Shown: positions 376 through 17,947 of the stretch, one piece after another | Position numbering within the stretch: the first letter of the stretch is position 1 | How the letters are laid out: each line of letters starts with the position of its first letter | Assembly: GCA_030378105.1 (NCBI GenBank) | Contig: JAUCGL010000088.1 | Location: forward strand, 1 to 19,909 | Direction of reading: 5' to 3' | Length of the DNA: 19,909 nt | From: Candidatus Halobeggiatoa sp. HSG11 | GTDB lineage: Bacteria; Pseudomonadota; Gammaproteobacteria; Beggiatoales; Beggiatoaceae | Position numbers and translations under genes: made by a program | Notes under the pieces: model-generated | Database searches by the model: none | Told to the model about the DNA's origin: nothing | The model's input: the letters and a program-made list of their open reading frames with translations, nothing else

Positions 376-1089
376 TTAATCAATATTCAAATCAACCTGT
401 TGCAATAAATTTGCTCGCATTTGTCGTAACTGGCTAGAATCTTTAGAAGTTTGAATATGTTTAGATAACTCATCCAAAGCATCATACCAAAAACCATGTT
501 TAGCATAAATCAATGGCAATTTGTCTTTAGAACTAGCCTTTAATTCCGTAGTTAATTGAGCAGTTGGTTTAATCCGTATTATGCTGCCAGTAGCACTGAC
601 ATCTAAACTGGGATAATCTTTATGGCAATTAATGGACAAATTAATTTGGTATTTGATTCCCGGTATTAATTCAAAATCTGGTATCGGCAAAGCCTGTATC
701 CCTTTGGAAACTGACATTTTAAATTCCTTTTTAACTAACGGTGGGGCAAATTCAAAATCATTATCTGTAGCCAATTTATCTATTATTAATAACAATTCAG
801 CATCTTGCAATGGTTGCGATACCCACCAATACAAAATTGGATGAGATGATATAGTTTTACCAGTATTTTTAGGCACTAATAAACGCAAAGCAAAATCATC
901 TTGCATTTGAGTACAAGTACCACGCATACCTCGCATACCTCGCATACCACGAATTCCGCGTACATCAGCTTTAAACTCACGGACATTATCGTTAAATTCT
1001 GCCCCTTGATAAGAAATTTTATCCAATGCAGTCACATTCATTACAGCAAACATTGCTAGACTTAAAGTTATAAATTTGATACTATTCAT
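376..1089 (-). CDS. Secreted hypothetical protein with an N-terminal signal peptide and an internal RGI/RGM/RGM/RGM/RGT tripeptide repeat. A DUF928-like family is possible but cannot be verified from sequence alone.
   Basis: ORF 376..1116; the likely true start is the internal Met (MNSIKFITLSLAMFAVMNVTA|LD) at 1089, preceded by GAGGA 8 nt upstream. Hydrophobic h-region followed by an AxA-like cleavage site. No recognisable catalytic motifs. Divergently oriented to the CHAT gene. Confidence 0.6.
   Translation of the reverse strand: MNSIKFITLSLAMFAVMNVTALDKISYQGAEFNDNVREFKADVRGIRGMRGMRGMRGTCTQMQDDFALRLLVPKNTGKTISSHPILYWWVSQPLQDAELLLIIDKLATDNDFEFAPPLVKKEFKMSVSKGIQALPIPDFELIPGIKYQINLSINCHKDYPSLDVSATGSIIRIKPTAQLTTELKASSKDKLPLIYAKHGFWYDALDELSKHIQTSKDSSQLRQMRANLLQQVDLNID
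914..958 (-). repeat. In-frame 9-bp tandem repeat (5 units, consensus cgcatacct on the + strand) encoding (RGM)n inside the secreted protein.
   Basis: Direct reading: taccacg/catacctcg/catacctcg/cataccacg/aattccgcg. The protein shows DVRGIRGMRGMRGMRGT. Confidence 0.8.
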
Positions 1090-1197
1090 AATATTTTCCT
1101 CAATATTGAATGACAAAGACCTTAATTAAGTTTTCAAAACTTAAATTGGTCTGTTGAAAATCATTTTACTACAATTTTAAAATTAGGAGTAATTTTT

Positions 1198-3405
1198 ATG
1201 ATTTCTAGGCTATTTTTTTGTGTATTAATATTATGTGTTACTGAAACGTTTGCCACTCAAAAGAGTCAAGATTTTTATCAACAAGGAAATTTTGCTCAAG
1301 CGATTCGTAATTTGGAACAATCAATAACACAATTACAACCGGGTAGTACAGAACATTTTAACGCTATTATCCGTTTAGCAGTGGCTAACCAAAAAGCTGG
1401 CAATAATTACACCACCGCTTATGATTTATTTCAACAAGCTTTGACTTTAAGTAATGATAATACGGCTCGTCAAGTTCTAGTGCATAGTTATTTAGGCGAT
1501 TTATTGCTAGTTATGCAACAATCAGACGAAGCAATAACCCAGATGGAGAAACATTTAGAGACAGCTCGTTCTTTAGATGATTCAGCGATTTTAGTCAATT
1601 TTTTGAATAATCTCGGCAATGCTTTGGCTGTTGAGCAATATTATAAATCAGCTTTTCAGATGTATCAAGAAGCAATTGAAATAGCTCAACGTATTGATAA
1701 CCAAAACTTATATATCCAAACTCTGCTCAACCAATTACGACTTGATTCTAAGTTAAATTCTTTGGAACCAAAAAAACTTGCTGAAGCAGTTACCTTGATA
1801 GAAAAACTACCTGCTAATTATGATAAGGCTTTTTATTTACTTAGTGTTGGAGAGCTATCTTTACATGGAAATGGACAACAAGCTAATAAAATATTATCCC
1901 AAGTTTTAATCTTAGCCAAAAAATATCAAAATAATCGCTTACTCTCTCATGCTAAAGGTTTTTTAGGTGAATTGTACGGACAACAACATCGCTATGATGA
2001 GGCTTTGTTATTAACAAGAGAAGCTGTTTTTGCTGCTCAAGATATTCCAGATACTTTATATATTTGGGAAACCCAGTTGGGGCATATTCTGTTGGCTCAA
2101 AAAAAATTGGCAGAAGCTTTAATAATGTTTAGACAAGCTTTAGAACATTTACAATTAATTCGCCAAAAATTGAATGTTGGTTTGCATAATTCACAAGACA
2201 ATTTTTACCAACATATTCAGCCAATTTATTACAGTATTGCAGATATTTTATTGCAACAAGCAAAACTGGCTACTGATGATAAAAAGGATTTGTTAATTCA
2301 AGCAAGAGATACAATTGAGCAATTAAAGGAAGCAGAATTGCAAGATTACTTTCAAAATGAATGTATTTCAGCAGTTAAATCTAGTATAAAACAATTAGAT
2401 AATTTGGGCGAAAATACAGCAGTGTTTTACCCTATATTATTGAAAAATCGCATAGAATTATTAATTAATATAGGAACTGAATTAAAGCAAGTTGTCATTC
2501 CAGTTTCTCATGCGGAAGTCAATGCAACAGTGTTGGAATTTCGTTCTAATTTACAACGGACTACAGAAGGTAGTTTTATCGTACAAGCCAAACAGCTTTT
2601 TCAATGGTTAATCGCTCCTTTACAAGAGGAATTTGATAAGCATAAAATTAACACGTTGATAATTGTTCCAGACGGTATATTGCGTACTATTCCTATGTCT
2701 GCGTTATATAATCCAACTAAAAAACGTTTTCTGTTTCATCAATTTGCTTTGGTGACAACTCCTAGTTTAAGACTAACCGATCCGCATAAACTGCCTCGCA
2801 AAAATGTCCAAATAATGTTAAATGGTCTATCGGAAGCCGTGCAGGGTTTTACTCCGTTACCAAATGTTATACAAGAGATTGAACAGATTGATAATATTTT
2901 TAACAAAAAGGAAGTGTTATTAAATAAGGATTTTTCACTGGAAGCAGTTAATCAGGCTCTACAAGCTGCTCCTTATGAAATTATACATATTTCTTCACAT
3001 GGTCAATTTGATCGTAATCCTAAGAAAAGTTTTTTACTTACCTATGATAGCAAGTTGACAATGGATCGATTGGAAAAATTATTTCGAGTAACTGGATTAA
3101 GGAAGAAACAGGTAGAGTTATTGACTTTGAGTGCTTGTCAAACGGCTGTTGGTGATGAAAGGGCTGCATTAGGATTGGCCGGTGTGGCACTTAAGGCTGG
3201 GGCAAGAAGTGCGTTGGCAAGTCTTTGGTTTGTGGATGATGAAGCAACTTCTCAATTGATAGCTGAATTTTATCAACAGTTGCAAAATCCAGAATTATCC
3301 AAAGCTCAAGCTTTGCAAAATGCTCAACGGAAATTGGCTAAACAAAGACGTTTTCGACATCCAGCTTATTGGGCTCCATTTTTGTTGATTGGGAATTGGT
3401 TGTAA
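1198..3405 (+). CDS. TPR-repeat + CHAT domain (caspase-like, clan CD) protein with a predicted Sec signal peptide.
   Basis: 735 aa. N-terminus MISRLFFCVLILCVTETFA|TQ is signal-peptide-like. The N-terminal ~450 aa are TPR-like helical repeats (AxxAxxxY/LxxAL patterns). The C-terminus carries CHAT hallmarks: the His motif IHISSHGQF (His codon 2998..3000) and the Cys motif LLTLSACQTAVGDE (Cys codon 3136..3138), followed by SALASLWFVDD. AGGAG lies upstream of the ATG. Confidence 0.85.
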   Translation: MISRLFFCVLILCVTETFATQKSQDFYQQGNFAQAIRNLEQSITQLQPGSTEHFNAIIRLAVANQKAGNNYTTAYDLFQQALTLSNDNTARQVLVHSYLGDLLLVMQQSDEAITQMEKHLETARSLDDSAILVNFLNNLGNALAVEQYYKSAFQMYQEAIEIAQRIDNQNLYIQTLLNQLRLDSKLNSLEPKKLAEAVTLIEKLPANYDKAFYLLSVGELSLHGNGQQANKILSQVLILAKKYQNNRLLSHAKGFLGELYGQQHRYDEALLLTREAVFAAQDIPDTLYIWETQLGHILLAQKKLAEALIMFRQALEHLQLIRQKLNVGLHNSQDNFYQHIQPIYYSIADILLQQAKLATDDKKDLLIQARDTIEQLKEAELQDYFQNECISAVKSSIKQLDNLGENTAVFYPILLKNRIELLINIGTELKQVVIPVSHAEVNATVLEFRSNLQRTTEGSFIVQAKQLFQWLIAPLQEEFDKHKINTLIIVPDGILRTIPMSALYNPTKKRFLFHQFALVTTPSLRLTDPHKLPRKNVQIMLNGLSEAVQGFTPLPNVIQEIEQIDNIFNKKEVLLNKDFSLEAVNQALQAAPYEIIHISSHGQFDRNPKKSFLLTYDSKLTMDRLEKLFRVTGLRKKQVELLTLSACQTAVGDERAALGLAGVALKAGARSALASLWFVDDEATSQLIAEFYQQLQNPELSKAQALQNAQRKLAKQRRFRHPAYWAPFLLIGNWL

Positions 3406-3414
3406 GTTGGTTGT

Positions 3415-3655
3415 TTGAATCAGAATTAACAGAATTATAGAATTTTCAGGATAAATTCACAAACTTATTTGGTTTAATCCTGTCAATCCTGATTCTGACA
3501 ATTAATTCTCAAACAGTTGCAAATCATATAATTTTCTGGTTAAATAGATTGTAAGTAGCTTGTGGGCAGTTTTTCGACAACCCCAAGCCTAGACAATTAA
3601 CTATTATCACTAGTCTTGCCGTGCAATCATTATAGCATGGTGACTTGCTTCCAAA
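3415..3655 (-). mobile_element. Truncated IS1-family remnant: the 3' part of the insB-like transposase ORF plus the IS end. About 85% identical to 10124..10335.
   Basis: Direct alignment to 10124..10335 (shared tgcaaatcatataattttctggttaaatag and caaccccaagcctagacaattaactat...tagtcttgccgtgcaatcatta). That region on the minus strand encodes the InsB-like C-terminus CTARLATIVNCLGL. Confidence 0.55.
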
Positions 3656-3664
3656 GGCAAATTT

Positions 3665-4675
3665 ATGTTATCACATTTATATATTGTTCAATCTAAAAAT
3701 GGTCTAATCAAAATAGGCCGTAGTAAATGTCCCAAAAGACGTATCACTGAAATAGCTAAAGCCACCGGTACAAAAGTTATTAAGCAACATATATCTCCAC
3801 TCTGTTTGAATGCCCATAAAATTGAGCGGTATTTACATAAACATTTTGCTAAACATCGACAAGAAGGTGAATGGTTTGATATTGATTTTGAAACAGCTGT
3901 TGACGAAGCTGAAAAACAGAAATTCCAAACTGAAGAGCCAAGTAAAATGATGCCATTTGAATTTAATGGTGACAAAATACGTACTTTGACTGATGAAAAA
4001 GGTGAACCTTGGTTTGTAGCTAAAGATGTTTGTAAAGTTGTAGAAATTAGTAAATACCGTGATGCTATTGCAAAACTTGATGATGATGAAAGGATGTCCA
4101 TGATTGTGGACACCCTTGGTGGAAAGCAAAGAATGGTGTGTGTTAATGAATTTGGATTATACACACTCATACTCATGTCACAAAAACCTCAAGCTAAACA
4201 AGTTCGGCGTTGGGTAACTCACGAAATCCTCCCAAGTATCCGCAAAACTGGCCAGTATTCTATTCCAACTAATCAACAACTGAAAGGTAAAGTTGAGCAG
4301 AAGACTTTTGAGAGTTTCATTGCTGACTGTTTTATTCCCGATTCAACCAATAAGGAAAGAGCTAGAGATATTTATTTAATTTATCAAGGTTGGTGTTTGC
4401 AGAATAAATGTGAGGCTCGAACAATTCAATGGGTTGGAATGCAACTAAGGAAACAAGGTTATGGTAAAAGCAAATGTCCACCTAATGGTGTGGCCTGTTG
4501 GCATGGATTCCGACTGAATAATTTGGCTTGCCCAGCCAATCCAAGTAATTTGGAGGATTTACAGAGCTATCTATCTGCTTTGAGTAAAAATCTCGCTACT
4601 GGAATGCAATATTCTAATACGGAGTTATTGAGTTTGATTAATACTGCTAATCAGAAGGTTATGGCAATTCAATAA
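3665..4675 (+). CDS. Phage-like protein with an N-terminal T5orf172/GIY-YIG-like domain, a central Bro-N (BRO family N-terminal, antirepressor-type) domain, and a Cys-rich C-terminal region of unknown function.
   Basis: N-terminus: LYIVQSKNGLIKIGRSKCPKRRITEI...EGEWFDIDFETAVDEAEK, the T5orf172/MUG113-like motif (IKIG.S..P..R...L). Middle: FEFNGDKIRTLTDEKGEPWFVAKDVCKVVEI...VDTLGGKQRMVCVNEFGLYTLILMSQKPQAKQVRRWVTHEILPSIRKTGQY, the canonical Bro-N pattern. AGG lies 7 nt upstream of the ATG. Flanked by IS-end repeats. Confidence 0.75.
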   Translation: MLSHLYIVQSKNGLIKIGRSKCPKRRITEIAKATGTKVIKQHISPLCLNAHKIERYLHKHFAKHRQEGEWFDIDFETAVDEAEKQKFQTEEPSKMMPFEFNGDKIRTLTDEKGEPWFVAKDVCKVVEISKYRDAIAKLDDDERMSMIVDTLGGKQRMVCVNEFGLYTLILMSQKPQAKQVRRWVTHEILPSIRKTGQYSIPTNQQLKGKVEQKTFESFIADCFIPDSTNKERARDIYLIYQGWCLQNKCEARTIQWVGMQLRKQGYGKSKCPPNGVACWHGFRLNNLACPANPSNLEDLQSYLSALSKNLATGMQYSNTELLSLINTANQKVMAIQ

Positions 4676-4677
4676 TG

Positions 4678-4712
4678 TCTGAATCAGGATTTTCAGGATA
4701 AATTCACAAGCT
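4678..4712 (+). repeat. Solo IS1-like end fragment (ctgaatcaggattttcaggataaattcacaagct).
   Basis: Matches the ends of the 3415, 7437 and 10124 copies. Confidence 0.6.
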
Positions 4713-4806
4713 ATAGACATTCATAAAAATACATTTGTGTGAAACCTGCGAGGTTTTGGAAACCTCGTAGGTTTTTGTGAAGTTATTTATCTGAAAAACT
4801 ATAGTT
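4706..4806 (+). repeat. Hairpin-containing ~100-bp MITE-like element (family H). Core hairpin: aaacctgcgagg-ttttggaaa-cctcgtaggttt.
   Basis: Near-perfect 12-bp stem with one G-U pair. Whole element matches the reverse complement of 10878..10985. The hairpin module is related to 17984..18018. Confidence 0.7.
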
Positions 4807-4855
4807 TTGTTTCATCCTGTCCATCCTTTAATCCGTTAAATCCTATTCAAAACAC

Positions 4856-7408
4856 TTAAATATTACTCACCAACAATTCTGGCCGACAACTTGTCCAATC
4901 AACCTGTTTAGCTTCTTTAACTTCAGTTTTTAAATCAATATCTTCTTCCTCTTCAATAAGCACTAATTCGTTAGCAATAAAATCGGCTGGGGAAGGTTGG
5001 CTGCCAGTTAAATGGAATACATAGAAAGTGCTTGGTTCCATTATGTCTTCAATGGTGCAAGGTCGTCTCATATGGGCGGCAGCATTGAGGAAATTGATAC
5101 CAAAAGCTTTTAAGGCTCCGGTTAAATCAACATCTATGGACTCAATTGCTACTTCGCCATCTAAACCCAAATTTGAGGAAGCACTTATTAAACTATTTGG
5201 AGAAGTTATGAATTGGTCAGCAACAATGCGAATATTGCCACCATGTCCTGCATCAGCTTGGGCTTTGATTTGACCTTGATTCAATACCACGAAATTGGGA
5301 TTTTCAATCGTTATATTGCCTCCATCCCCGCTACCACCTTGTACGCTGGTAGTCATTTGCCCTTCTCGCAAAAACAGTAAGTTTGGAGTGACGATAGTCA
5401 TATTACCACCGGTGGCGTGTTTGGCAGAGGTAGTGATTGTGCTACCATTGGTTATTTTTATCGTATTGGCTTGTACGGCAACATTACCGGCATTACCGGT
5501 TCCCATAGCGTTAGCTGTAATTATTCCACCATCTTTAATGTTAAGATGATTGGTTTCCACTTTAACATTCCCACCTTGTCCAATACCTAAAGATTGAGTA
5601 GAAATAGTACCAGCAGAATTGGTGATATTATCCGTAGCAATAACATGTACATTGCCACCAGGACCTTGTCCAATAAATATTTTTTTTCCTATCAAACCAC
5701 CGCTAGCACTGTTAATTTCAGAACCAGCTCCCATGAATAAATTATTTATGCTAACAGTGACATCTCCAGCTACACCTTCACCAAGCGTACCTGCACTAAT
5801 CCCGGCATAATCATCTATAATAAGATCATTAGCAGCAACAGAAATATTACCGGCAGCACCTTTACCAAAACTCATAGTGACAATGCCAGATTGGTTATTT
5901 TCAAGAGTAATCACACTGATAATAAGTAATCCTAAACGTCTTCCACTTATAGACATTGTGTTGGAGTTAATGTTTATTTTGCCGCCATTTCCATCTCTAA
6001 AAGCTGTGGATGTAATCAGACCACCACCGGTTATAATTATTTTATCGGCATTCACCGTAATGTCATTGCTGTCAGATATTCCATAATTATCGGTTGAAAT
6101 CGAACCACCAGCTATATTTAAAAGTCCAGTAGTGATAGTAATACTACCTGATTTTCCACCATTGTAGGAGGTCACAGTGGCTAAAGTACTAATATTATCT
6201 TGTTTAGTAGTACCCAGAATAACAACCCTTCCCTTTCGTCGACCTGATATAAAAACGGATTCCGTGGCATTAATATTGATATCGCCACTTTGCCCTTTGC
6301 CATAGGTCTCACTACCAACGATACCTCCTTTATCCAGTAATATTTGTTTGGCTTTGATCGATATATCACCTGCATCACCGGTATCAAAATTGGTGCTTCC
6401 AATGACGCTTCCAGTGACTGTCAAATAAGGAACATTAATAGTTATAGCACCCGCATTACCACTATCCATCGCGTCATTCATTATAGCGTAAAATTCTCCT
6501 TTAATATCAATACTATCTGTCAATTTCAGGTTAATACCCTTACCATTCTCATCGGCCATCGTCTTGGCTTGAATGACCGCATCATCCATGAAAAATTGTC
6601 CACCACGAACAAAAACACTGCCACTGCCTCTACCACTGACTTCCATTAAGGTATTATTAGCTGTTATGGTTCCACCTTCAGCATTCAAGTCTAATCCAGA
6701 CTCGCTTGGAATAACTTCACCTTGAGAAGCTACACTCGCCAAATTAATTCGTCCCGCTAGTGCAGATAATTTAGAACTAGCAAAAATCACCATGAATCCT
6801 TGTTCATCAAACACTATCGGAGAATTACCGTTCAAATTTAAATCTCCACCAATTAATGATAAAGTTTGTCCATAAGGCACAGCCAATGTACTGTCTTGTG
6901 TAGAAATTGATTTGGGAGAATCAGTCAAAAAACCAAAACTTGCAATCGGCGCAATCGTCAACAAACTATCACTCGGATTAAGCGCATCAAACCGCCCATT
7001 TTCTCCCAAACGTAAATAGTCAGCAGTGCTGGCATGAAAAGAGCCTTGCACATCCAATTGAGCATTCGGCCCAAACATAATTCCATACGGGTTAAGAAAA
7101 TACATATCTGCATTGGGAATTGTCGAACGGATTAAACCATCAATGTTAGAAGGATTGCCACCAGTTACGCGACTTAAGATATTCTGCACACTGTTTGGCC
7201 CAGAGAAGGTGGCACTTTCCGCGCTATTCAAATTAAAGTCTTGGAAGCTGTGGAAGAGATTACCTCCATGTTGTTGACCCAAATCAGCACCAATTTGAAA
7301 ATCAGGACCGGGTAAATTGATATTTTGGCCGAGTGTACCGTCAGTTACTATTTCGGCGTTGGAGGATAAAGTGATGATTAATAAAGATGCTATTGTTAAA
7401 TGTTTCAT
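4856..7408 (-). CDS. TPS-domain (haemagglutination-activity / filamentous haemagglutinin N-terminal domain) exoprotein. Gly-rich beta-helix repeat body; TpsA-like, paralog 1.
   Basis: 850 aa. Signal peptide MKHLTIASLLIITLSSNA|E. TPS hallmarks: TDGTLGQ...GGNLFHSFQDFNLNS...NILSRVTGGNPSNIDG...FLNPYGIMFGPNAQLDVQGSFHAST (NPNGI-type motif). The body is GGNI/GxG repeats. TPS domain at ~6930..7350. Confidence 0.85.
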   Translation of the reverse strand: MKHLTIASLLIITLSSNAEIVTDGTLGQNINLPGPDFQIGADLGQQHGGNLFHSFQDFNLNSAESATFSGPNSVQNILSRVTGGNPSNIDGLIRSTIPNADMYFLNPYGIMFGPNAQLDVQGSFHASTADYLRLGENGRFDALNPSDSLLTIAPIASFGFLTDSPKSISTQDSTLAVPYGQTLSLIGGDLNLNGNSPIVFDEQGFMVIFASSKLSALAGRINLASVASQGEVIPSESGLDLNAEGGTITANNTLMEVSGRGSGSVFVRGGQFFMDDAVIQAKTMADENGKGINLKLTDSIDIKGEFYAIMNDAMDSGNAGAITINVPYLTVTGSVIGSTNFDTGDAGDISIKAKQILLDKGGIVGSETYGKGQSGDININATESVFISGRRKGRVVILGTTKQDNISTLATVTSYNGGKSGSITITTGLLNIAGGSISTDNYGISDSNDITVNADKIIITGGGLITSTAFRDGNGGKININSNTMSISGRRLGLLIISVITLENNQSGIVTMSFGKGAAGNISVAANDLIIDDYAGISAGTLGEGVAGDVTVSINNLFMGAGSEINSASGGLIGKKIFIGQGPGGNVHVIATDNITNSAGTISTQSLGIGQGGNVKVETNHLNIKDGGIITANAMGTGNAGNVAVQANTIKITNGSTITTSAKHATGGNMTIVTPNLLFLREGQMTTSVQGGSGDGGNITIENPNFVVLNQGQIKAQADAGHGGNIRIVADQFITSPNSLISASSNLGLDGEVAIESIDVDLTGALKAFGINFLNAAAHMRRPCTIEDIMEPSTFYVFHLTGSQPSPADFIANELVLIEEEEDIDLKTEVKEAKQVDWTSCRPELLVSNI

Positions 7409-7436
7409 TTTGTTTTCCGAATAAAGATTAACATAA

Positions 7437-7517
7437 TTATAGGATTTTCAGGATAAATTCACAAGCTAGTTTTATTCCATCTTGTTAATCCTCAAATTCT
7501 GTAAATCCTGATTCAGA
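7437..7517 (+). repeat. ~80-bp IS1-end-derived MITE-like element with imperfect terminal inverted repeats (aggattttcagga ... tcctgattcagac). Forms the 5' leader of TpsA paralog 1.
   Basis: Aligns with 10149..10210 (ttttcaggataaattcacaagctagtttt[a/g]ttccatc[t/c]tgttaat). Sits 29–110 nt upstream of the 7408 start, the same spacing as the copy upstream of paralog 2. Confidence 0.6.
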
Positions 7518-7526
7518 CAAAGACAA

Positions 7527-10103
7527 TCATTTTTTACAAGTTAAAGAAGCCAATTTTTCAGTTGAATTTTTAACCGAAACTGTTGTTTTAATAGGCAATA
7601 TTTCGGATAACAACGGTCCACTTGGCAATAAATCGTCCAATGAGTTAGGCGAACCTTCACTTGGTATAACAACAAAGCTACTCATATTTTCAGTTATCCT
7701 TTGACCACAAGGAGTTTTCATTTGATTACTAGCATCCACAACTTTATCTGGTAACACAACCAAAAAACCATCCAAATCAACATCTATAGACTCAATTGCT
7801 ACTTCACCATCCAAACCCAAATTTGAGGAAGCACTGATTAAACTATTTGGAGAGGTAATGAACTGTTCAGATTTAATACTTATGTTACCACCATGTCCTG
7901 CATCAGCTTGTGTTTTGATTTTGCCTTGATTTAACACTACAAAATTAGGATTTTTGATGGTGATGTTACCGCCACTTCCTACTCCCTTTGCAACACTGGT
8001 GGTTATTTCACTATTATTCAAATAAAGCAGTCTTGAAAGATTTGTTAATTCGATATTTCCTCCACCTGATAGAGTTGAGGCGGTACTTATGTTAGCATTT
8101 TCAGTTAATTGTATCTGTTGTGCTTGTAAATTAATTTGGCCAGCATCGCCAATACCATAAGCACGAGCGGAGATAGCTGAATCACCTTTAATATCCAAAA
8201 AATCGGTTTGTAAATTAATATTACCGCCTAGCCCATGAGTGTAGGTGTCAGTGAAAATTCCTGTTTGATTCGCTTGCGAATGTTGAGTAGTTAAACTAAT
8301 ATATTTTGATCGAATGTTGATACCACCACCATGTCCAACACCTATAAGCATTTCTGAAGTCGATATATCGTAAATACTATTACTCGCATTGATTTGCCCA
8401 CCTTCAGTGAGAATCAAATTTTCAGTTTGTAGGTCAATAGTACTAATTTTTTCACCCAAACCAAGTGATGATGCAGTAATTGAACCTTCCTCAGTCAAAT
8501 GAATGGTTTTGGCTTTCAACTTCAACTGTCCACCAGTACCAAGTAAAGAAAGACTTTGAATGCTACTTGTATTATGATTAACTTCCTGATTAGTACTTGG
8601 TAGAAAAATAATACCATCCCGTCGTCCAGATAAAAACAAGGTATCAGCCACATCTAATTGAATACTACCCGCTAATCCAAGGTCAGCCGCTGAAGTTGCA
8701 ATAAAGGCACCTGCTGTTAGATTGATATTATTCGCTTGAATATGAATATTAGCTGCATTACCTACACTAAAACTTGCACTAGTAATAATTCCTCCAACCA
8801 TATCAAGTTGTTGAGTGTTAATATCAATATTGCCTCCTAACCCTGATGAATAAGTCGTACTATCAATATAAGAGGGTAAATCTATAAACGGTACTCCATT
8901 GCGTATCCCACTTCCAACACCATATCCTGATATTAAAATAGATTCAGTTGCTTTAATAGTTAATAAACCACTTTTCCCACCAACAGATGCGTTAGAGATA
9001 CCAGCTCCATTTAAGAGAGATAACTGAGCTACTTCTATGTCAGTATTTCCACCAATAGTTTCTGCCATTGGATTGGCTGATATAGCTACTCTATCCAATA
9101 CTAATTTTGGTACTTTAATGGTTATTGAACCACCATGACCACTTCCAAATGCTTTGCTAGAAAAAGATTGAAGTCCAAGATGGTTCGGGTCACTAGTAGC
9201 ATATAATAATTCTGTCAATTGAATATCCATGAGGCCCCCATCGAAGTCTCCCAAAGTATTAGTTTGCAAGGCACTATCTTGCATTTGTAACCACCCACCA
9301 CGAATTTTAAGGTTGCCACTGCCTAAGCTACTGGTATCCACTAGAGTACGATTGAGAGAAATGTCGCCTCCTTGTCCGGTGATGGTTAAATCATTATTAC
9401 TCACAATCACTTCGCCACTCGAACCAATTGCTGTTAGATTGAGTGTACCGCCAGTGGTTTTGAGGAAGGAAGTTGCAAAGGTCGCATAAATATTCAAGTC
9501 ATCAAATTGGATTGGCAAAGTTCCCTGTAATTGTAAATCTCCACCAATTAATGACAAGGATTTGAATGGCGGAACTAACAAAGTACTGTCCTGCGTGGTA
9601 ATTGGAGCTGGTGAATCACCAAGGAATCCAAATGCTTCAATTGGAGCAATGGTCAACAAACTGTCACTCGGATTGCGAACATCAAACCGGCCATTTTCCC
9701 CCAAACGTAAATAATCAGCAGTGCTGGCATGAAAGCTTCCTTGTATGTCTAATTGAGCATTTGGCCCAAACATAATTCCATATGGATTGAGGAAATAGAA
9801 ATTTGCATTGGGAATTGTTGAGCGAAGTAGCCCATCAATATTGGATGGATTGCCACCAGTTACCCGACTGATTATATTTTGCACTGAATTTGGCCCAGAA
9901 AATGTTGCTGATTCTGAACTATTCAAGTTAAAGTCTTGGAAGCTGTGGAATAGGTTGCCGCCGTGTTGCTGGCCTAAATCTGCTTCGATTTGAAAATCGG
10001 GGCCGGGTAGGTTAATATTTTGGCCGAGTGTGCCATCAGTGATAACTTCGGCGTTGATTGATAGAGAAGTGACTAATAAAGGTATAGTTATTAAGTATTT
10101 CAT
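7527..10103 (-). CDS. TPS-domain exoprotein, paralog 2 (TpsA-like).
   Basis: 858 aa. N-terminal ~185 aa are ~90% identical to paralog 1, including all TPS motifs. Conserved C-proximal block GGNITIKNPNFVVLNQGKIKTQADAGHGGNI...SPNSLISASSNLGLDGEVAIESIDVDL. Divergent central Gly-rich repeats and a divergent 81-aa tail. AAGGA SD. Confidence 0.85.
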   Translation of the reverse strand: MKYLITIPLLVTSLSINAEVITDGTLGQNINLPGPDFQIEADLGQQHGGNLFHSFQDFNLNSSESATFSGPNSVQNIISRVTGGNPSNIDGLLRSTIPNANFYFLNPYGIMFGPNAQLDIQGSFHASTADYLRLGENGRFDVRNPSDSLLTIAPIEAFGFLGDSPAPITTQDSTLLVPPFKSLSLIGGDLQLQGTLPIQFDDLNIYATFATSFLKTTGGTLNLTAIGSSGEVIVSNNDLTITGQGGDISLNRTLVDTSSLGSGNLKIRGGWLQMQDSALQTNTLGDFDGGLMDIQLTELLYATSDPNHLGLQSFSSKAFGSGHGGSITIKVPKLVLDRVAISANPMAETIGGNTDIEVAQLSLLNGAGISNASVGGKSGLLTIKATESILISGYGVGSGIRNGVPFIDLPSYIDSTTYSSGLGGNIDINTQQLDMVGGIITSASFSVGNAANIHIQANNINLTAGAFIATSAADLGLAGSIQLDVADTLFLSGRRDGIIFLPSTNQEVNHNTSSIQSLSLLGTGGQLKLKAKTIHLTEEGSITASSLGLGEKISTIDLQTENLILTEGGQINASNSIYDISTSEMLIGVGHGGGINIRSKYISLTTQHSQANQTGIFTDTYTHGLGGNINLQTDFLDIKGDSAISARAYGIGDAGQINLQAQQIQLTENANISTASTLSGGGNIELTNLSRLLYLNNSEITTSVAKGVGSGGNITIKNPNFVVLNQGKIKTQADAGHGGNISIKSEQFITSPNSLISASSNLGLDGEVAIESIDVDLDGFLVVLPDKVVDASNQMKTPCGQRITENMSSFVVIPSEGSPNSLDDLLPSGPLLSEILPIKTTVSVKNSTEKLASLTCKK

Positions 10104-10123
10104 TTTATTTTTCCTTTTAAATT

Positions 10124-10800
10124 GCCTGAATCAGGATTTTCAAAATTATAGAATTTTCAGGATAAATTCACAAGCTAGTTTTGTTCCATCCTGTTAATTC
10201 TCAAATTCTCAAACGGTTGCAAATCATATAATTTTCTGGTTAAATAGTTGGTAATTGGTTTAGGGTAGTTCGTAAACAACCCCAAGCCTAGACAATTAAC
10301 TATCGTTGCTAGTCTTGCCGTGCAATCATTATTAATCCAAAACTTCGTTGGTACATCAAGGGCAGCAAATACCCATAATTGATGTTTTTTGCTCTGTAAA
10401 ATATGACCATAATTCATCCATTTGTACGAATAGTAAATTTAGTCCAATTGTTATGCAAAGAAATGTATGAAATACTTTACTTTTTTCACCAATAGCTTCG
10501 ACCCACCGTTCAATAGTTCTGACATCATGTCCTATAATATTATGCGATCTGTCCTACAGATAATCCACAGGAACACATTTTCGCAACCATTTCATATTCA
10601 TAAAAACTACCTTGCTTTTTAAACAAGCCTGAATACCTTGTTTCTGAAAAACGATGATTACCACCATGACACTTCAACATTTGTCGGGGGATAGAGTCAG
10701 ATTTTGTTGTATAAACACCATCTTTGGTTATTGTAATTCATTGGGTCTTGGTAGCAGGGACATTTTTTATCTGGACATAAAAGTTGTATTTTTGTATTAA
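10124..10800 (-). mobile_element. Degenerate IS1-family insertion sequence (~0.7 kb) with frameshifted/stop-interrupted insA-like and insB-like reading frames.
   Basis: Minus-strand translations: ITKDGVYTTKSDSIPRQMLKCHGGNHRF (cf. IS1 InsA ...[25 protein letters not shown]) and KMCSCGLSVGQIA (HTH-like). MDELWSYF then, after a frameshift, SKKHQLWVFAALD...CTARLATIVNCLGL (cf. IS1 InsB [22 protein letters not shown]...GERTMATLGRLMSLL). The size matches IS1 (~768 bp). Comparison to IS1 is from memory, not a database search. Confidence 0.6.
10175..10760 (-). pseudogene. IS1-family transposase (insA/insB-like) pseudogene with multiple frameshifts and stops.
   Basis: As above. The tracked ORF 10175..10417 is only its 3' fragment. 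Confidence 0.55.
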
Positions 10801-10877
10801 TTTTTTCGCACATATATTACCATAATTTTATTAAGTGTTTATATCTGTATAAAATATTATGATAACATACCTGCATT

Positions 10878-10985
10878 GGTTTGTGGGGACTACCGTTTTT
10901 CAGATAAATAATTTCACTTAAAACCTACGAGGTTTCCAAAACCTAGCAGGTTTCACACGAATGTATCTTAATGGATGTCTATAGG
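10878..10985 (-). repeat. Family H hairpin element, inverted copy (aaacctacgagg-tttccaaaa-cctagcaggttt).
   Basis: Reverse complement aligns with 4706..4806 over ~100 bp, including the flanking ttatttatctgaaaaa module. Confidence 0.7.
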
Positions 10986-11075
10986 TTCACCCCTTCGGGG
11001 TTAACAATTGATTCATAAACCCTGAAAGGGTTGAATGTGAATAACCACCGATGAAATCGGTGGAATATAGTAAGT
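10978..11075 (+). ncRNA. Candidate structured RNA or repeat element (family T): three consecutive hairpins capped by UUCG, GAAA and GAAA-type loops.
   Basis: caCCCCttcgGGGG; AACCCTgaaaGGGTT; CCACCGATgaaATCGGTGG. The stable tetraloops occur only when read on the + strand. A decayed inverse copy lies at 15120..15245. Confidence 0.4.
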
Positions 11076-11111
11076 CCCATAATTTGGCATTCTTCAACAC
11101 ATATTTGACAG

Positions 11112-11206
11112 TTATTTCGGGAATGAAACGAAGTGGATTTCCCAAAATCTAAATTAAGCAATCGTTTCGGGAAATACGTTTCACTTCATTCCCGAAACAA
11201 CTGTTC
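11112..11206. repeat. Nested long-range inverted repeat: outer arms tttcgggaatgaa[acg]aagtg / cacttcattcccgaaa with a 3-nt bulge; inner atttccc / gggaaat.
   Basis: Direct reading. No ORF; gene-free region. Confidence 0.6.
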
Positions 11207-11404
11207 ACTAATTTTTAATTTTTTACATCCATAAATTGGGATACAAAAATTAGTCAAAATAGCTGTTTTTCGACAGGCTAGTCAGATTCCCATTCCCATG
11301 AGGACATGATTTCGTGGGCATGACAATTAATTATTTTTATCAACGAATCTATTATAGTCAGTCATAGGCGTTCTGGATAATTCATAACTAATTGATATAT
11401 ATAT

Positions 11405-11485
11405 TTAATTATGAATGGTTAACTGTGAATATTTAATTGTTAATGAAAGTCAAAATCATTAATAATTAACCATTCATAATTAATA
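11405..11485. repeat. 18-bp inverted repeat (ttaattatgaatggttaac ... gttaaccattcataatta) with a ~40-bp AT-rich spacer, immediately 3' of the flotillin gene.
   Basis: Direct reading. Possible terminator or protein-binding palindrome. Confidence 0.5.
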
Positions 11486-11498
11486 ATTGCTATACCAT

Positions 11499-12878
11499 TC
11501 AATCCTTATCCGCATTTGATATATCAGAATCAGTCTTTGGCTTAAGAATTTTACCAAGAGTTTCAGGTAATTCAACACCAGACATATTTGCAAATTCATG
11601 TAATGGTGGCAAAATTTTTGTGATACTAGAAATCCAATTAGCTGTTGTTGAATGATCACCATTAGCTGTATCCATAACCACAATTTTATCAAACTTAATA
11701 TTGCTGATAGCTTTGGATTGAGCATCAACAATTTTTGGTAATTGCTCAATAACCATCAGAGTTGCGGCCTTATCTGGATCGCCACCAATAGCAGCTACAA
11801 TAGCCTTGAAACCATCAGCTTTTTTAGCCATTTGCTCATAGATACCTTTGGCTTGTCCAGACATTTCTGCTTTCAGTGCTTCACCTTTACCCTGCCCGTC
11901 AAGAACCATCTGAGCTTTTTTAGCTTCTGCATCAATAATTTGTTTATCTTTTGCAATTTCTGCTGGTACAACAACATCAGCTTGTTGAGTTGCACGTTCT
12001 CGTTCTGCACGAGCAACTTCAGCTTGCTGTTCTGCTACATAACCAGCTTCTTGAGCTGCTGCGGTTTGTACTGCTTCGGCAGAATCACCACGCCGTTTAG
12101 CATCTGCTTCTGCTTCTCGACGATCAGCGTTGGAATTAGCTTCAACAACCATTGCTTTATTTTCACCAGTTATAGCTCGTGCATTAGCATCAGCAACATT
12201 AACTCGTTCTTCTTGTTTAGCATTTGCGGAACCAGTTTCACCATCTCGCTGTTGTTGAGCAACTTGAACTTTAGCACGGTTAATCGCTTCAGCAGCAGCT
12301 TTTTCACCCAAAGCTTTCAAATAGCCTGATTCGTCAGTGATATCAGCAATATTGACATTAATAAGCCGTAAACCAATTTTTTTCAGTTCACTTTCGATAT
12401 TTTCCATCACTTTCTGGCTAAACGTGTCACGATCAGCATTGATTTCTTCAATATTCATCGTTGCGATAGTTGCTCGCAATTGGCCTAAAATAATTTCTTG
12501 GGCCATTGCTTCAAGAGCGTCTGGAGTGAGGCCGAGTATACGAATGGAAGCATTGTGCATAAGCTCTTCAGTAGTGCCAATACCAAAAGTAAATTTGGAA
12601 GGAACATTGACACGAATATTTTGTTTAGAAAGAGCTGATTTTAATGGAACATCGGTGGTTATTGGAGTTAAATCCAAATAGGAATATTGCTGGATAAATG
12701 GCCACACAAATGCGGCTCCACCATGAATTGGTAACGCAGATTTGCCGGCACCAATTTTACCATATTTAACTAGAATTTTATTGGAAGGACAGGTTTTATA
12801 ACGGCCAACAAATATTGAAAAAAAACCTATGATAAACAAACCAATGATGACTGCGACTACTATATAATATGTAAACAT
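11499..12878 (-). CDS. Flotillin-like SPFH/Band-7 domain protein (YqiK/FloT family).
   Basis: 459 aa. N-terminal TM helix (YYIVVAVIIGLFIIGFFSIFV). SPFH core, then a long Ala/Glu/Gln-rich coiled coil (EAEADAKRR...AEQQAEVARAERERA) and a flotillin C-terminal region. Confidence 0.85.
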   Translation of the reverse strand: MFTYYIVVAVIIGLFIIGFFSIFVGRYKTCPSNKILVKYGKIGAGKSALPIHGGAAFVWPFIQQYSYLDLTPITTDVPLKSALSKQNIRVNVPSKFTFGIGTTEELMHNASIRILGLTPDALEAMAQEIILGQLRATIATMNIEEINADRDTFSQKVMENIESELKKIGLRLINVNIADITDESGYLKALGEKAAAEAINRAKVQVAQQQRDGETGSANAKQEERVNVADANARAITGENKAMVVEANSNADRREAEADAKRRGDSAEAVQTAAAQEAGYVAEQQAEVARAERERATQQADVVVPAEIAKDKQIIDAEAKKAQMVLDGQGKGEALKAEMSGQAKGIYEQMAKKADGFKAIVAAIGGDPDKAATLMVIEQLPKIVDAQSKAISNIKFDKIVVMDTANGDHSTTANWISSITKILPPLHEFANMSGVELPETLGKILKPKTDSDISNADKD

Positions 12879-15119: not shown

Positions 15120-15245
15120 ACGCAGAAAGCCTTTATATTCCACCGATTTCATCAGTGACTATTCACATTCAACCCCTTCAAGATTTGAATAACCCCAACG
15201 AGGTTAAAATTAAATAGCCATAGGTGAAACCTATGGAATCAAATT
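15120..15245 (-). repeat. Degenerate inverted copy of the family T three-hairpin element.
   Basis: Reverse complement aligns with 10978..11075 (ttgaatgtgaata...gatgaaatcggtggaata). The hairpins are partly disrupted. Confidence 0.55.
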
Positions 15246-15399
15246 AAAAATGTTCTCTGCGTCAACCATCAGCTATTTAGGAAAGATGTCTAATAAAATT
15301 ACACCTCTCCTTTGAAATTTTTTTCTTAATTTTGGGGGGGAGTGAGCAATTACCTTACAATCAATCACTGGACCTGCCAAATTATTTAATTATTAATAT

Positions 15400-15661
15400 A
15401 TATTAATAATTAAGAAATTGTATTTATTTTATTAAACCATGTCTTATAATAATAATAACATTATATTTTTTATATATGTTATAAAATACAAAATGTTATG
15501 TCTATTTAACCTATTTTAACGTTAAAAATAATAAAAAAATATAACCATATTCTTCAATTTTTTGTTATTATCTGTATATTAATAAGCATTTCAACATATA
15601 ACAATACTTTCTTTAAGTATTTTATAACTTTTACTTAATAAATACCTGATTTAACAGAAAA
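15400..15661 (+). promoter_or_regulatory. Extremely AT-rich (>85% A+T) upstream region of mrcB. Probable promoter/UP-element region.
   Basis: Composition only; no sigma-70 boxes confidently assigned. Confidence 0.3.
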
Positions 15662-17947
15662 ATGACATACACAGAACCAAATAGATTGCCACCACGTCGT
15701 CGTCGTAGAACTCATAAAAAGCGTTCACCACCACCTCGTCGTCAAAAATTTCATTTCAAAATAAGATGGATAATTATTTTAGTGATTATGGTATTTGTTG
15801 GTAATTATATAAGTGGAATAGACATAAAAGTTCGCAAACAATTTGAAGGTAAGCGTTGGGCATTACCAGCCCGAGTCTATGCAAGTCCATTAGAATTATA
15901 TAGTGGCAGTAATATAAATCCAGAGAGTTTGGCTAAAGAATTAAAAGCTTTAGGTTATCAGCATTCTAAACAACTTTATGAAACTGGGCAATATCAACGT
16001 AATAAAGATAAATTTATAATAACAACTCGGGCTTTTAAATTTTGGGATGAAGCAACATCAACACGTAAAGTACAAGTCCGTTTTAATGGCAACATAGTTA
16101 AATCTATCACTGAATTGCAAACTAAACGTCAGATACCACTCTTACGTTTAGAACCAAGACTTATAGGTAAGCTTTATCCAACTCATAATGAAGACCGTAT
16201 CTTAGTTCAATTAAAAGATGTGCCAAAACAGTTAATTGATGCCATAATTGCTGTTGAAGATCGTAATTTTTATAGCCATTATGGAGTAAGTATACGTGGC
16301 ATTCTTCGGGCTTTTTTTGAAAATGTTAAGTCTGGTGAATTAGTTCAGGGTGGTAGTACATTAACTCAACAGTTGGTTAAAAACTTTTATTTAACTCCTG
16401 AACGTACTTTAAAACGTAAAATAAATGAAGCTATTATGTCCGTATTACTGGAATGGCATTATAGTAAGGAACAAATTTTAGAAGCTTATTTTAATGAGGT
16501 TTTTTTGGGTCAAGATGGAAATCGAGCTATTCATGGAATGGGAATGGCGGCTAGATTTTACTTTAATCGTCCTTTGAAAGATTTGAGATTACCGCAATTA
16601 GCATTGTTGGTTGGTTTAATACGTGGCCCCACAGTTTATAATCCACGTTTACATTCACAGAAAGCATTAGACCGACGCAATATGGTATTGGATATTATGG
16701 CCCAAGAAAATAAAATTTCTTCTGAAAAAGCTTTATTGGCCAAAAACACTCCGCTGGACATTATTAAAAAAATGTCGGAAAAATTTCCTTACCCAGCTTT
16801 TATAGGTTTTGTACGCCATCAACTGCATAAAGATTATCGTGAAGAAGATTTGCGTTCTGAAGGTTTGCAGATTTTTACAACTTTAAATCCAACTATTCAG
16901 AGAATAGGTGAAAGGGTTATGGTAAGGGGTTTAAGAAAGTTGCAGAAAAAAACTCGTAAAGCTCGTAATCTACAGGGAGCAATGGTTGTCACCAACGTTG
17001 AAAATGGCGAGGTGTTAGCGTTTGTGAACGGTAAAAATTCACAATATGCCGGTTTTAATCGACCTCTCAATGCGATTCGTCCAATAGGCTCTTTAGTTAA
17101 AATAGCGGTATATTTAACGGCATTGGAAAGAAATAATAGTTATTCATTGACAACAATTATTAATGATAAGCCTTATACATGGGTAGATCGTAATACTGGC
17201 GAAGTGTGGAAACCACGTAACTATGATAAAATTTCTCATGGCCGAGTACCGCTATACTATGCTCTAGCTCATTCTTATAACCTTGCTACAGTTCGTTTAG
17301 GTATGTCGTTGGGATTGGGTAAAATATATGAAACTTTAGAACGTTTAGGTGTAGAAAAAGAGTTTAAGACAAGATACCCCTCAATGTTGTTAGGTAGTAT
17401 TTCCTTAACTCCATTAGAAGTTACGCAGATGTATCAAACTATTGCTAGTGGCGGTTTTCGTATTCCGTTAAAATCAATTCGAGCAGTTTTAGATCACAAA
17501 GGTGAACCTCTGAAACATTATGGATTGGAAATAAAGAAACGCTTTGATGAAGCACCAGTATATTTATTAAACTATGCATTACGACGTGCTGTACGAGAGG
17601 GAACTGGACGTAAGGTTGCCAGAACTCTACCATCAAGAATGGTTTTAGCTGGTAAAACTGGTACAAGTAACGATAAACGTGATAGTTGGTTTGCTGGGTT
17701 TGGTGGCAAATTTTTAGCGGTGACATGGGTTGGTCGTGATGATAATAAACCAATGGGATTAAGTGGTGGTACAGGAGCGATGGTTGTTTGGCGAGATTTC
17801 ATTGCATCTATTCGTCCCAATACATCTTTGTCACCAGCACCTCGCAATATAAGGTGGCGTAAAAAAGGTTCAAAACGCATTCCATATATCGTTGGTGGTA
17901 GTAGTAGCAATCAAACTACAGCCAAGAATGGTTTGTTTATATTTTAA
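15662..17947 (+). CDS. mrcB: Penicillin-binding protein 1B (bifunctional glycosyltransferase/transpeptidase).
   Basis: Basic cytoplasmic tail then a TM segment. UB2H-like region (GKRWALPARVYASP). GT motifs EDRNFYSHYGVS and GGSTLTQQLVKN. TP motifs SLVK (SxxK), SYN (SxN) and KTGTS. Confidence 0.9.
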   Translation: MTYTEPNRLPPRRRRRTHKKRSPPPRRQKFHFKIRWIIILVIMVFVGNYISGIDIKVRKQFEGKRWALPARVYASPLELYSGSNINPESLAKELKALGYQHSKQLYETGQYQRNKDKFIITTRAFKFWDEATSTRKVQVRFNGNIVKSITELQTKRQIPLLRLEPRLIGKLYPTHNEDRILVQLKDVPKQLIDAIIAVEDRNFYSHYGVSIRGILRAFFENVKSGELVQGGSTLTQQLVKNFYLTPERTLKRKINEAIMSVLLEWHYSKEQILEAYFNEVFLGQDGNRAIHGMGMAARFYFNRPLKDLRLPQLALLVGLIRGPTVYNPRLHSQKALDRRNMVLDIMAQENKISSEKALLAKNTPLDIIKKMSEKFPYPAFIGFVRHQLHKDYREEDLRSEGLQIFTTLNPTIQRIGERVMVRGLRKLQKKTRKARNLQGAMVVTNVENGEVLAFVNGKNSQYAGFNRPLNAIRPIGSLVKIAVYLTALERNNSYSLTTIINDKPYTWVDRNTGEVWKPRNYDKISHGRVPLYYALAHSYNLATVRLGMSLGLGKIYETLERLGVEKEFKTRYPSMLLGSISLTPLEVTQMYQTIASGGFRIPLKSIRAVLDHKGEPLKHYGLEIKKRFDEAPVYLLNYALRRAVREGTGRKVARTLPSRMVLAGKTGTSNDKRDSWFAGFGGKFLAVTWVGRDDNKPMGLSGGTGAMVVWRDFIASIRPNTSLSPAPRNIRWRKKGSKRIPYIVGGSSSNQTTAKNGLFIF

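Follow-up and report, generated by a model that had tools for sequence, protein, structure and literature searches.

The locus and its two exoprotein genes

The window analysed here is a complete contig of 19,909 bp from Candidatus Halobeggiatoa sp. HSG11. It carries two genes, A and B, for TpsA-type exoproteins of two-partner secretion (TPS, type Vb secretion), which lie head-to-tail on the minus strand as one open reading frame (ORF) each, with A upstream of B. Both genes consist of conserved terminal modules around a divergent beta-helix core, followed by a short tail with two cysteines, and it is this modular structure and its origin by exchange of cores that are discussed below. The genes and their modules are as follows.

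7527..10103, minus strand: gene A, TpsA-type exoprotein of 858 residues (ORF; Pfam TPS domain, E 3.8e-36)
10047-10103, minus strand: signal peptide of A
9564-10046, minus strand: conserved TPS block of A
8010-9563, minus strand: beta-helix core of A
7776-8009, minus strand: conserved C-terminal block (C-block) of A
7530-7775, minus strand: Cys tail of A, with Cys799 at 7707-7709 and Cys856 at 7536-7538
4856..7408, minus strand: gene B, TpsA-type exoprotein of 850 residues (ORF; Pfam TPS domain, E 1.1e-37)
7352-7408, minus strand: signal peptide of B
6869-7351, minus strand: conserved TPS block of B
5360-6868, minus strand: beta-helix core of B, with P0035 and Parabeggiatoa L022_5917 as relatives in which synonymous sites are not saturated
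5126-5359, minus strand: C-block of B
4859-5125, minus strand: Cys tail of B, with Cys784 at 5057-5059 and Cys841 at 4886-4888

A and B possess the features by which TpsA (type Vb) proteins are recognised, namely a signal peptide plus TPS domain and a right-handed beta-helix passenger. Both proteins are matched by TIGR01901 (E 1e-21 and 2e-20) besides Pfam PF05860, and the adhes_NPXG model was also matched alongside the TPS domain. The putative signal peptides, MKYLITIPLLVTSLSINA/EV in A and MKHLTIASLLIITLSSNA/EI in B, were read off the sequence by eye and not by a dedicated predictor. An AlphaFold2 (AF2) model of A, built from 93 homologs, forms a continuous beta-helix from residue 20 to 775 at a mean predicted local distance difference test score (pLDDT) of 84.9, and no structure is predicted for the last 84 residues in this full-length run (pLDDT 30-36). 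Foldseek searches with this model returned HxuA, EtpA and HMW1 as top matches, HxuA being the first. HMW1 and HxuA were also the best matches of an alignment-profile search of solved structures, there confined to the TPS domains; when A was compared with the PDB as a lone sequence, nothing matched. Each protein contains exactly two cysteines, both located in the tail and spaced 57 residues apart. A search of the whole window against Rfam gave no match.

At the protein level, A and B are 88% identical in the TPS module (residues 20-180), 30% in the core of ~500 residues, 83% in the 78-residue C-block, which closes with ...LGLDGEVAIESIDVD, and 24% in the tails. These values bear out a preliminary description of this DNA, in which A and B appeared as tandem paralogs with conserved ends and divergent cores and tails, and the block coordinates given there are correct to within a few bases. 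The nucleotide identity of 85-90% claimed for the conserved blocks was too high, however: we measured 76-77% between 6850-7408 and 9550-10103, and 80-82% between 5123-5330 and 7773-7985, the best local BLAST matches between the genes being 78.5% over 687 nucleotides (nt) and 85.6% over 181 nt. The mosaic pattern is therefore real, but had been overstated.

A large family with a common conservation profile

Gene A has more than 3,000 homologs, nearly all of them in genomes or metagenomes of the Beggiatoaceae type, and TPS genes are commonly grouped in arrays of two to five that lack a TpsB within 10 kb. The HSG11 assembly alone contributes 11 paralogs, which is a lower bound for the genome; their TPS modules are 71-89% identical, their C-blocks 51-85% and their cores 26-54%, and their tails fall into discrete classes. 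Since all 11 combine a conserved TPS module with a divergent core, the pattern seen between A and B is a rule of this genome and not a product of their tandem position.

The conservation profile of the entire family has the same shape as that of the A-B pair. For any two members, baseline identity is ~70% in the TPS module and 57% in the C-block, and falls to 33% in both core and tail, so that differential constraint by itself accounts for part of the pattern. This agreement, together with synonymous sites that are near saturation everywhere between A and B, speaks for a plainer explanation of the locus, in which A and B are old tandem duplicates that diverged in place under stronger purifying selection on the TPS module and C-block, with no recombination. 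We regard this explanation as improbable in view of the conflicting histories of cores and ends described in the next section.

No gene for a TpsB transporter was found by Pfam and other profile models in the 19.9 kb of the window. Likewise, none lies within 10 kb of the related loci L001 and L002, and no recurrent ShlB/POTRA family is present among 46 large ORFs of related loci. A 578-residue ORF upstream in locus L007 was considered as a possible TpsB, and was rejected as it matched only bPH_3.

Evidence for the exchange of cores

The modules of these proteins are not inherited together. The best core relatives of A (55-68% identical) have tails that are only 16-37% identical to that of A, while its best tail relatives (54-74%) have cores of 17-39% identity; cores and tails of B are uncoupled likewise. 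In a set of 85 proteins from 20 genomes, yielding 73 cases, the nearest neighbour belonged to the same genome in 40 cases for the TPS module, 37 for the C-block and 38 for the tail, but in only 12 for the core, where 6.7 are expected by chance. The frame modules (TPS, C-block and tail) thus follow genome or clade. In sliding windows, similarity profiles cross near residues 150-180, 700-740 and 775. Quartet bootstraps place A with B in the TPS module and C-block (913-1000 of 1000 replicates), yet in the core they place A with P0002 and B with P0035, P0077 or P0064 (1000 of 1000), a grouping with foreign genes that speaks against divergence in place.

The strongest evidence comes from synonymous sites. 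Fourfold-site identity between B and P0035 is 38% in the ends and 72% in the core (p = 2e-6), and between B and the Parabeggiatoa sp. nov. 3 gene L022_5917 it is 30% and 64%, respectively (p = 2e-5); for A and P0002 the values are 24% and 50% (p = 5e-4). Consistently, the sliding-window proportion of synonymous differences (pS) against the core relatives is low in the core and saturated in the ends. As a baseline, PBP1B of the window and its ortholog from the Parabeggiatoa cluster are 66% identical in protein sequence and 33% identical at fourfold sites, which is saturated. The fourfold identity of the cores lies far above this baseline, and B therefore shares a core ancestor with a Parabeggiatoa core that is much more recent than the divergence of the genomes, whereas the ends of B are near the baseline and hence as old as the genomes. 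One tree for all modules, as divergence in place would require, cannot explain such a difference between modules against the same partners when the baseline of the two genera is saturated. Codon bias as a source of the core signal is countered by the A-B comparison itself, in which 35% of fourfold sites agree in the core, against 49% in the ends (p = 0.1), with 30-36% expected from base composition alone.

Both signs of a mosaic family, conflict between module trees and synonymous divergence that depends on the module, are therefore present. For B, either a core passed from one genus to another and was built into a resident frame by recombination, or a whole gene moved and its ends were later converted to the local type. 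A second case of core transfer between genera is likely to be represented by P0099 of HSG11 and the gene at L024 7287-9413 of Parabeggiatoa HSG14, the cores of which are 87% identical in protein sequence, against 60% for the C-blocks and 34% for the tails, in genera whose PBP1B proteins share ~66%. Overall, core identities across genera amount to 55-87%, on a par with PBP1B, and cores of paralogs with ~30% identity are thus old conserved types with orthologs in other genera and not products of fast diversification. The cores are not hypervariable. These cores, or shafts, have moved between frames and genera through recombination inside the conserved ends.

The same combination of shared ends and unrelated cores recurs elsewhere. 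Locus L007 of Thiotrichales bacterium HSG1 repeats the order of the window, with a gene bearing an A-class tail, a gene bearing a B-class tail and a convergent Bro-N gene, and is 76-82% identical to the window in nucleotide sequence throughout the TPS, C-block, tail and Bro-N segments, whereas its cores are unrelated (33-34% amino acid identity). Recombinants of a younger age come from further genomes. Two adjacent Thiomargarita genes are 94% identical in nucleotide sequence over their first 500 nt and last 372 nt, with cores of 30% amino acid identity. In Parabeggiatoa HSG14, two genes share 98% nucleotide identity over C-block plus tail and have cores of 32% amino acid identity, and a further pair has a 3.2-kb core of 93% nucleotide identity and unrelated tails. 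Adjacent pairs within a genome are more alike than non-adjacent pairs in TPS module, C-block and tail (p = 0.004-0.011) but not in the core (p = 0.39).

Locus L007 also contains a 'core-less' gene (15135-16035), in which a C-block and B-class tail follow the TPS N-terminus with almost nothing in between, as well as extra pieces of B-class tails at 1229-1676 and 3602-3738; all of these have the appearance of by-products of deletion or recombination.

Absence of recent exchange between A and B

Conserved ends in direct repeat would permit A and B to exchange or delete sequence at present, and thereby to generate frequent surface variation in the population. Homologous ends in direct orientation are indeed in place, perfect repeats of 28-30 nt flank each gene, and paralog pairs of other genomes, from which gene conversion within HSG11 was judged, include ends of 94-98% nucleotide identity, with adjacent pairs having the more similar ends. 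The A-B pair itself argues against such exchange, however, which we hold to be hardly probable. Between A and B, pS (Nei-Gojobori) is 0.65 in the TPS block, 0.60 in the C-block and 0.61-0.65 in the core, the conserved blocks spanning 0.58-0.66, and the longest perfect match in coding sequence is 23 nt. With synonymous sites near saturation in all modules and so short a longest run, there is no current or recent gene conversion. The TPS block of A has a pS of 0.66 against B but of only 0.48 against a gene of Thiotrichales bacterium HSG1, and is thus closer to the latter at synonymous sites. Moreover, the identity of the A-B ends is typical of non-adjacent paralogs of the same genome, and the 28-nt repeats look like each gene's own promoter.

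Silent donors are likewise missing from the window. Apart from A and B themselves, it contains no piece of a TPS gene, and in a comparison with variation loci of the pilE/pilS type, truncated donor cassettes are absent from the window and the homologous arms are only 76-82% identical. A and B are thus not exchanging sequence, at least not recently. The proposal that the conserved ends form a substrate for gene conversion or deletion holds in its historical part, as quartets and fourfold sites indicate that recombination within the ends shaped both genes; conversion between A and B is not ongoing. The two genes are old products of core exchange and not an active switch.

A chimeric assembly was considered as a source of the A/B pattern and is unlikely, because exact matches extend over only 23-30 nt. 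It would in any case be irrelevant to the mosaic signals, since these consist of intermediate synonymous divergence and not of identity.

The C-terminal tails

The tails of A and B are 82 and 89 residues long, and are predicted to be disordered in two AF2 runs, one on the full-length protein and one on a class-specific alignment (pLDDT 30-41). In 93 homologs, Cys799 is invariant and Phe810 near-invariant. Individual tail classes are conserved across genera at 74-78% identity. A profile of C-block plus tail matched 12,916 cluster representatives, at least 1,726 of them at E <=1e-30, and most of the matches lie at the C-terminus and span the conserved proximal tail. The tails of A and B share more than the M[RK]xPC...SxF core to which their similarity had been reduced, and represent two of several classes of one homologous region found throughout the family.

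On a reading as a polymorphic toxin, akin to contact-dependent inhibition (CDI), TPS domain and helix would deliver the tails as payloads. In favour of this are a superficial resemblance to CdiA, since divergent tails come after a conserved block closed by a fixed motif, and the shuffling of tail classes relative to cores. The logic fails, however: the tails are short and predicted to be disordered, and show no match to Pfam at E up to 10 (five tails and C-block plus tail constructs searched), no match to the PDB and no confident fold. No pre-toxin motif of the VENN type is present in either protein. As the preliminary description had already observed, no small immunity-like gene lies nearby: A is followed by a 118-nt spacer and B, and B by a spacer and a convergent gene of 336 codons for a T5orf172/Bro-N protein. 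The maintenance of the proximal tail with its invariant cysteine across the family, and of tail classes across genera, is also at odds with divergent payloads, and is the outcome which that description had itself named as telling against them. Toxin delivery is thus most improbable; the tails, judged from their sequences, are not toxins but appear to be a conserved anchor- or dock-like module.

One long tail class (P0035, P0072, P0082, P0105, P0113 and others; also L047 5362-8436) ends in ...(S/R)V(I/M)PE(E)QLF with a terminal phenylalanine. This QLF ending recalls a C-terminal recognition signal, and is absent from A and B.

Neighbouring genes

Three further genes of the window lie on the far side of B.

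1198..3405, plus strand: caspase-like TPR-CHAT protein, for which a Sec signal peptide is predicted (TPRs and Pfam CHAT, the latter at E 1.5e-68)
376..1116, minus strand: DUF928 protein, likewise predicted to have a signal peptide, its gene diverging from that for TPR-CHAT (Pfam DUF928 E 6.5e-31)
3665..4675, plus strand: T5orf172 (GIY-YIG clan) plus Bro-N gene, 336 amino acids, convergent with B (Pfam)

The TPR-CHAT protein has an unexpected connection to the tails. In P0386, P0439, P0489 and P0503, a TPR-CHAT part is fused behind a TPS-helix-C-block-tail protein, so that C-block and tail become internal; together with these proteins, the genes at L067 9938-13426 and L075 7265-10525 carry TPR-CHAT behind the tail or in place of C-block and tail. 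The mature N-terminus of the TPR-CHAT protein of the window aligns, at 36% identity and E 1e-135, with the part of P0503 for which the end of the tail marks the start. TPR-CHAT genes adjoin TPS genes in six loci, namely the window, L047, L022, L073, L078 and L083, and in L047 the same pair of DUF928 and TPR-CHAT genes stands beside a TPS gene (8615-11903). The occurrence of a stand-alone, Sec-exported partner here and of a fusion to the C-terminus of the tail elsewhere suggests that the tail ends up in the periplasm and works with TPR-CHAT, which makes the TPR-CHAT protein a candidate periplasmic partner of TpsA tails. No paper linking CHAT domains with two-partner secretion, hemagglutinin or DUF928 was found in the searched library.

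The same findings would also fit a tail that is chiefly a pro-peptide or degron, cleaved by TPR-CHAT to free the mature exoprotein in the manner of FhaB, and not a permanent anchor. TPR domains typically bind extended peptides, and the tail is disordered, fused directly to TPR-CHAT in some proteins and encoded next to it in the six loci. Against this, there is no defined cleavage site, the CHAT gene is absent from most arrays, and the invariant cysteine with its frequent second cysteine fits an anchor of the HMW1/HxuA type better. Periplasmic processing as such is documented for FhaB in the passages retrieved from PMC8263021. On balance we consider the pro-peptide to be the less plausible role and rather unlikely as the chief one, but pro-peptide and anchor are not mutually exclusive.

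The T5orf172/Bro-N gene recurs in or beside TPS arrays (L007 8663-9670, L034 1-984, L036 4005-5024, L078 6876-10155, L079 6120-7127 and L080 2381-3439). Close Bro-N homologs adjoin TPS genes in L007, L034 and L036, and in a context look-up anchored on Bro-N, three of four genes were next to TPS genes (L078, L079 and L080). In most cases the Bro-N gene diverges from a TPS gene on one side and converges with a second on the other. Three tandem copies of it follow the TPR-CHAT gene of L078. It may represent a homing-endonuclease-like element residing in conserved spacers, or a regulator. A transposon-like reading of the gene in the window was prompted by the GAATCAGGATT inverted repeats that bracket it, and was dropped because such repeats are not general for Bro-N genes.

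Two further observations concern the neighbourhood. The DUF928 protein contains a short tandem peptide repeat, RGIRGMRGMRGMRGT, just behind its signal peptide. ATPase genes of the AAA_15/AAA_21 type, paired with DUF4276 or DUF4435 genes, occur between or beside TPS and CHAT genes (L083 2731-4487, L002 12392-14548); such pairs are known from anti-phage defence systems.

Leaders, spacers and repeats

The similarity between A and B extends ~100 nt upstream of both start codons. A perfect repeat of 28-30 nt within this similar stretch is present in four copies in the window, at 3439, 4686, 7441 and 10150, and three of the four contain a promoter-like TTGTGA-17-TATAAT site at the same position. A promoter scan of the sequence was at chance overall (27 sites against 26.5 expected), and only the positional conservation of this one site in three leaders stands out. 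The non-coding features are as follows.

10104..10332, minus strand: leader upstream of A, with a 28-mer at 10150-10177 and a promoter-like site at 10173-10145
7409..7526, minus strand: spacer between A and B (118 nt), which is the leader of B, with a 28-mer at 7441-7468 and a promoter-like site at 7464-7436
4686..4855, minus strand: spacer after B, with a post-stop element, an insertion resembling a miniature inverted-repeat transposable element (MITE) and a copy of the 28-mer
3417..3633, minus strand: orphan TPS leader with no TPS gene behind it, homologous to 10128-10332, with a 28-mer (3439-3466) plus promoter-like site (3462-3434)

In the spacer after B, the post-stop element (4802-4857) is 91-95% identical to elements that follow TPS genes in L007, and the copy of the 28-mer (4686-4713) lacks a -10 box. 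The distal part of the leader of A (10217-10332) resembles sequence found upstream of Bro-N genes, as if a Bro-N gene had formerly stood upstream of A.

The 98-nt MITE-like palindromic element occurs in two inverted copies, 4708-4805 and 10889-10984 (90% identical), which flank the A-B pair at a distance of 6.1 kb from one another; kin of this element are found in the Parabeggiatoa HSG14 loci L064, L029 and L023. Upstream of A, at ~10300-10800 on the minus strand, there are frameshifted transposase-like pieces, such as MDELWSYFTEQKTSIM... and, after a change of frame, WVFAALDVPTKFWI..., and the ~1.3 kb region 10418-11499 has no long ORF.

An integrated view of the exoprotein family

Taken together, these data make it probable that A and B are members of a very large family of type Vb exoproteins of ~800 residues in giant sulfur bacteria, which combine a resident frame with an exchangeable shaft, are mosaic by recombination, and carry a tail that acts as an anchor or dock. 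To the frame belong a promoter and leader proper to each gene, the TPS domain with its signal peptide, the last coils of the helix (the C-block) and the disordered cysteine tail; the beta-helix shaft lies in the middle. Export would be carried out by an unlinked, shared TpsB, such that the parts fitting this machinery are conserved while the exposed shaft differs between paralogs. By analogy with HMW1 and HxuA, the tail would stay in the periplasm, where it may anchor or dock the protein and where the neighbouring Sec-exported TPR-CHAT protease may bind or process it. The exoproteins themselves would probably serve in surface adhesion or in interactions with sheath or filament.

Several points weigh against this picture. 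The spacing of 57 residues between the cysteines compares with 5-11 in HxuA/HMW1, and in 65 of 116 relatives the tail contains just one cysteine, which excludes a disulfide knot as a mechanism common to the family. A CHAT gene lies within 10 kb in only ~9% of TPS loci, and the CHAT part of the fusions might be secreted instead of periplasmic. TpsB is neither encoded in the window nor recurrent near the arrays, which leaves export through a shared transporter as a supposition drawn from the sequences. At synonymous sites, TPS modules of Thiotrichales bacterium HSG1 and Halobeggiatoa are not closer within a genome than between the two, and the similarity of ends within genomes may partly mirror co-evolution with the transporter instead of gene conversion. 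The pairs compared for adjacency are not independent, and their p-values are indicative only. Finally, most of the comparison genomes are metagenome-assembled, and their genus labels hinge on binning.

A bolder proposal would unite all of these genes into an as yet undescribed surface system of multicellular giant bacteria, consisting of TpsA arrays, TPR-CHAT, DUF928 and Bro-N, in which interchangeable shafts sit in a common frame for export and anchoring, the caspase-like CHAT protease docks on the cysteine tail in the periplasm to hold or release the protein, and DNA breaks owed to the homing-endonuclease-like Bro-N gene of the conserved spacers drive the exchange of shafts, both inside a genome and from one genome to another. 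At present we regard such a system as quite doubtful.

Type Vb exoproteins are known mostly from pathogens, either as single adhesins or as carriers of swapped C-terminal toxins. Here, an uncultured, free-living giant sulfur bacterium keeps at least 11 such proteins, and it is the shaft that forms the exchangeable part, with export and tail modules remaining local. This provides a testable picture of how a repertoire of surface proteins is assembled, and defines a widespread C-terminal module, found in the 1,726 or more protein clusters mentioned above, that has no Pfam family. If the link between tail and CHAT is functional, it would constitute a new kind of periplasmic control in two-partner secretion, and open a first biochemical way into those CHAT proteases of bacteria that are not part of CRISPR systems.

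Comparison with known systems

The closest likeness is to the HMW subfamily, whose defining feature is an anchoring C-terminal disulfide (PMC4873976, PMC5422565). The tail cysteines of HMW1 and HxuA are considered to be joined in a periplasmic disulfide loop, by which the protein is locked in its TpsB, and HxuA's final 69 residues are disordered and believed to reach the periplasm by way of the TpsB barrel (PMC4873976, PMC5422565). A and B share with these proteins the N-terminal TPS domain, a single right-handed beta-helix of ~800 residues, and a disordered tail of ~70-90 residues with the only two cysteines of the protein. They differ from them in having no adjacent TpsB and no HMW1C-type glycosyltransferase, in the wide spacing of the cysteines, of which many members possess only one, and in the tie between tail and TPR-CHAT. 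They also differ in number, as a genome carries 11 or more paralogs, set in arrays, and in their free-living sulfur bacterial hosts.

Exoproteins with hemagglutination domains have been described in Beggiatoa (Mussmann et al. 2007, PMC1951784), and belong to the same gene family in the same bacterial family as A and B. According to the passages retrieved from that paper, several paralogs with affinity to cyanobacterial genes were found, and a role in gliding, sheath formation or adhesion was proposed; these passages hold nothing on a four-module architecture, a cysteine tail, core exchange or a link to TPR-CHAT.

Retention of a C-terminal part of TpsA in the periplasm, where it is handled by periplasmic proteases, has a parallel in Bordetella FhaB, as far as the retrieved parts of PMC8263021 and PMC4542190 go. 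The FhaB prodomain is ~1,200 residues in length, and the enzymes that cut it are DegP, CtpA and SphB1, not a caspase-like CHAT enzyme. No sequence similarity to the FhaB prodomain was detected.

Lastly, recombination at a junction that swaps a module is also a feature of CdiA and of meningococcal TpsA with their orphan C-terminal (CT) or tpsC cassettes, as described in the portions retrieved from PMC5422565 and PMC3848433, and the reshuffling of tail classes relative to cores in the present family is similar. In contrast to CdiA, there is no toxin fold, immunity gene or VENN motif and no promoterless cassette in the window, and the main unit of exchange is the central shaft between two conserved arms instead of a C-terminal toxin. 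What emerges from the sequences is a picture of HMW/HxuA-like TpsA exoproteins as a large, modular and recombining family with a candidate CHAT-protease partner.

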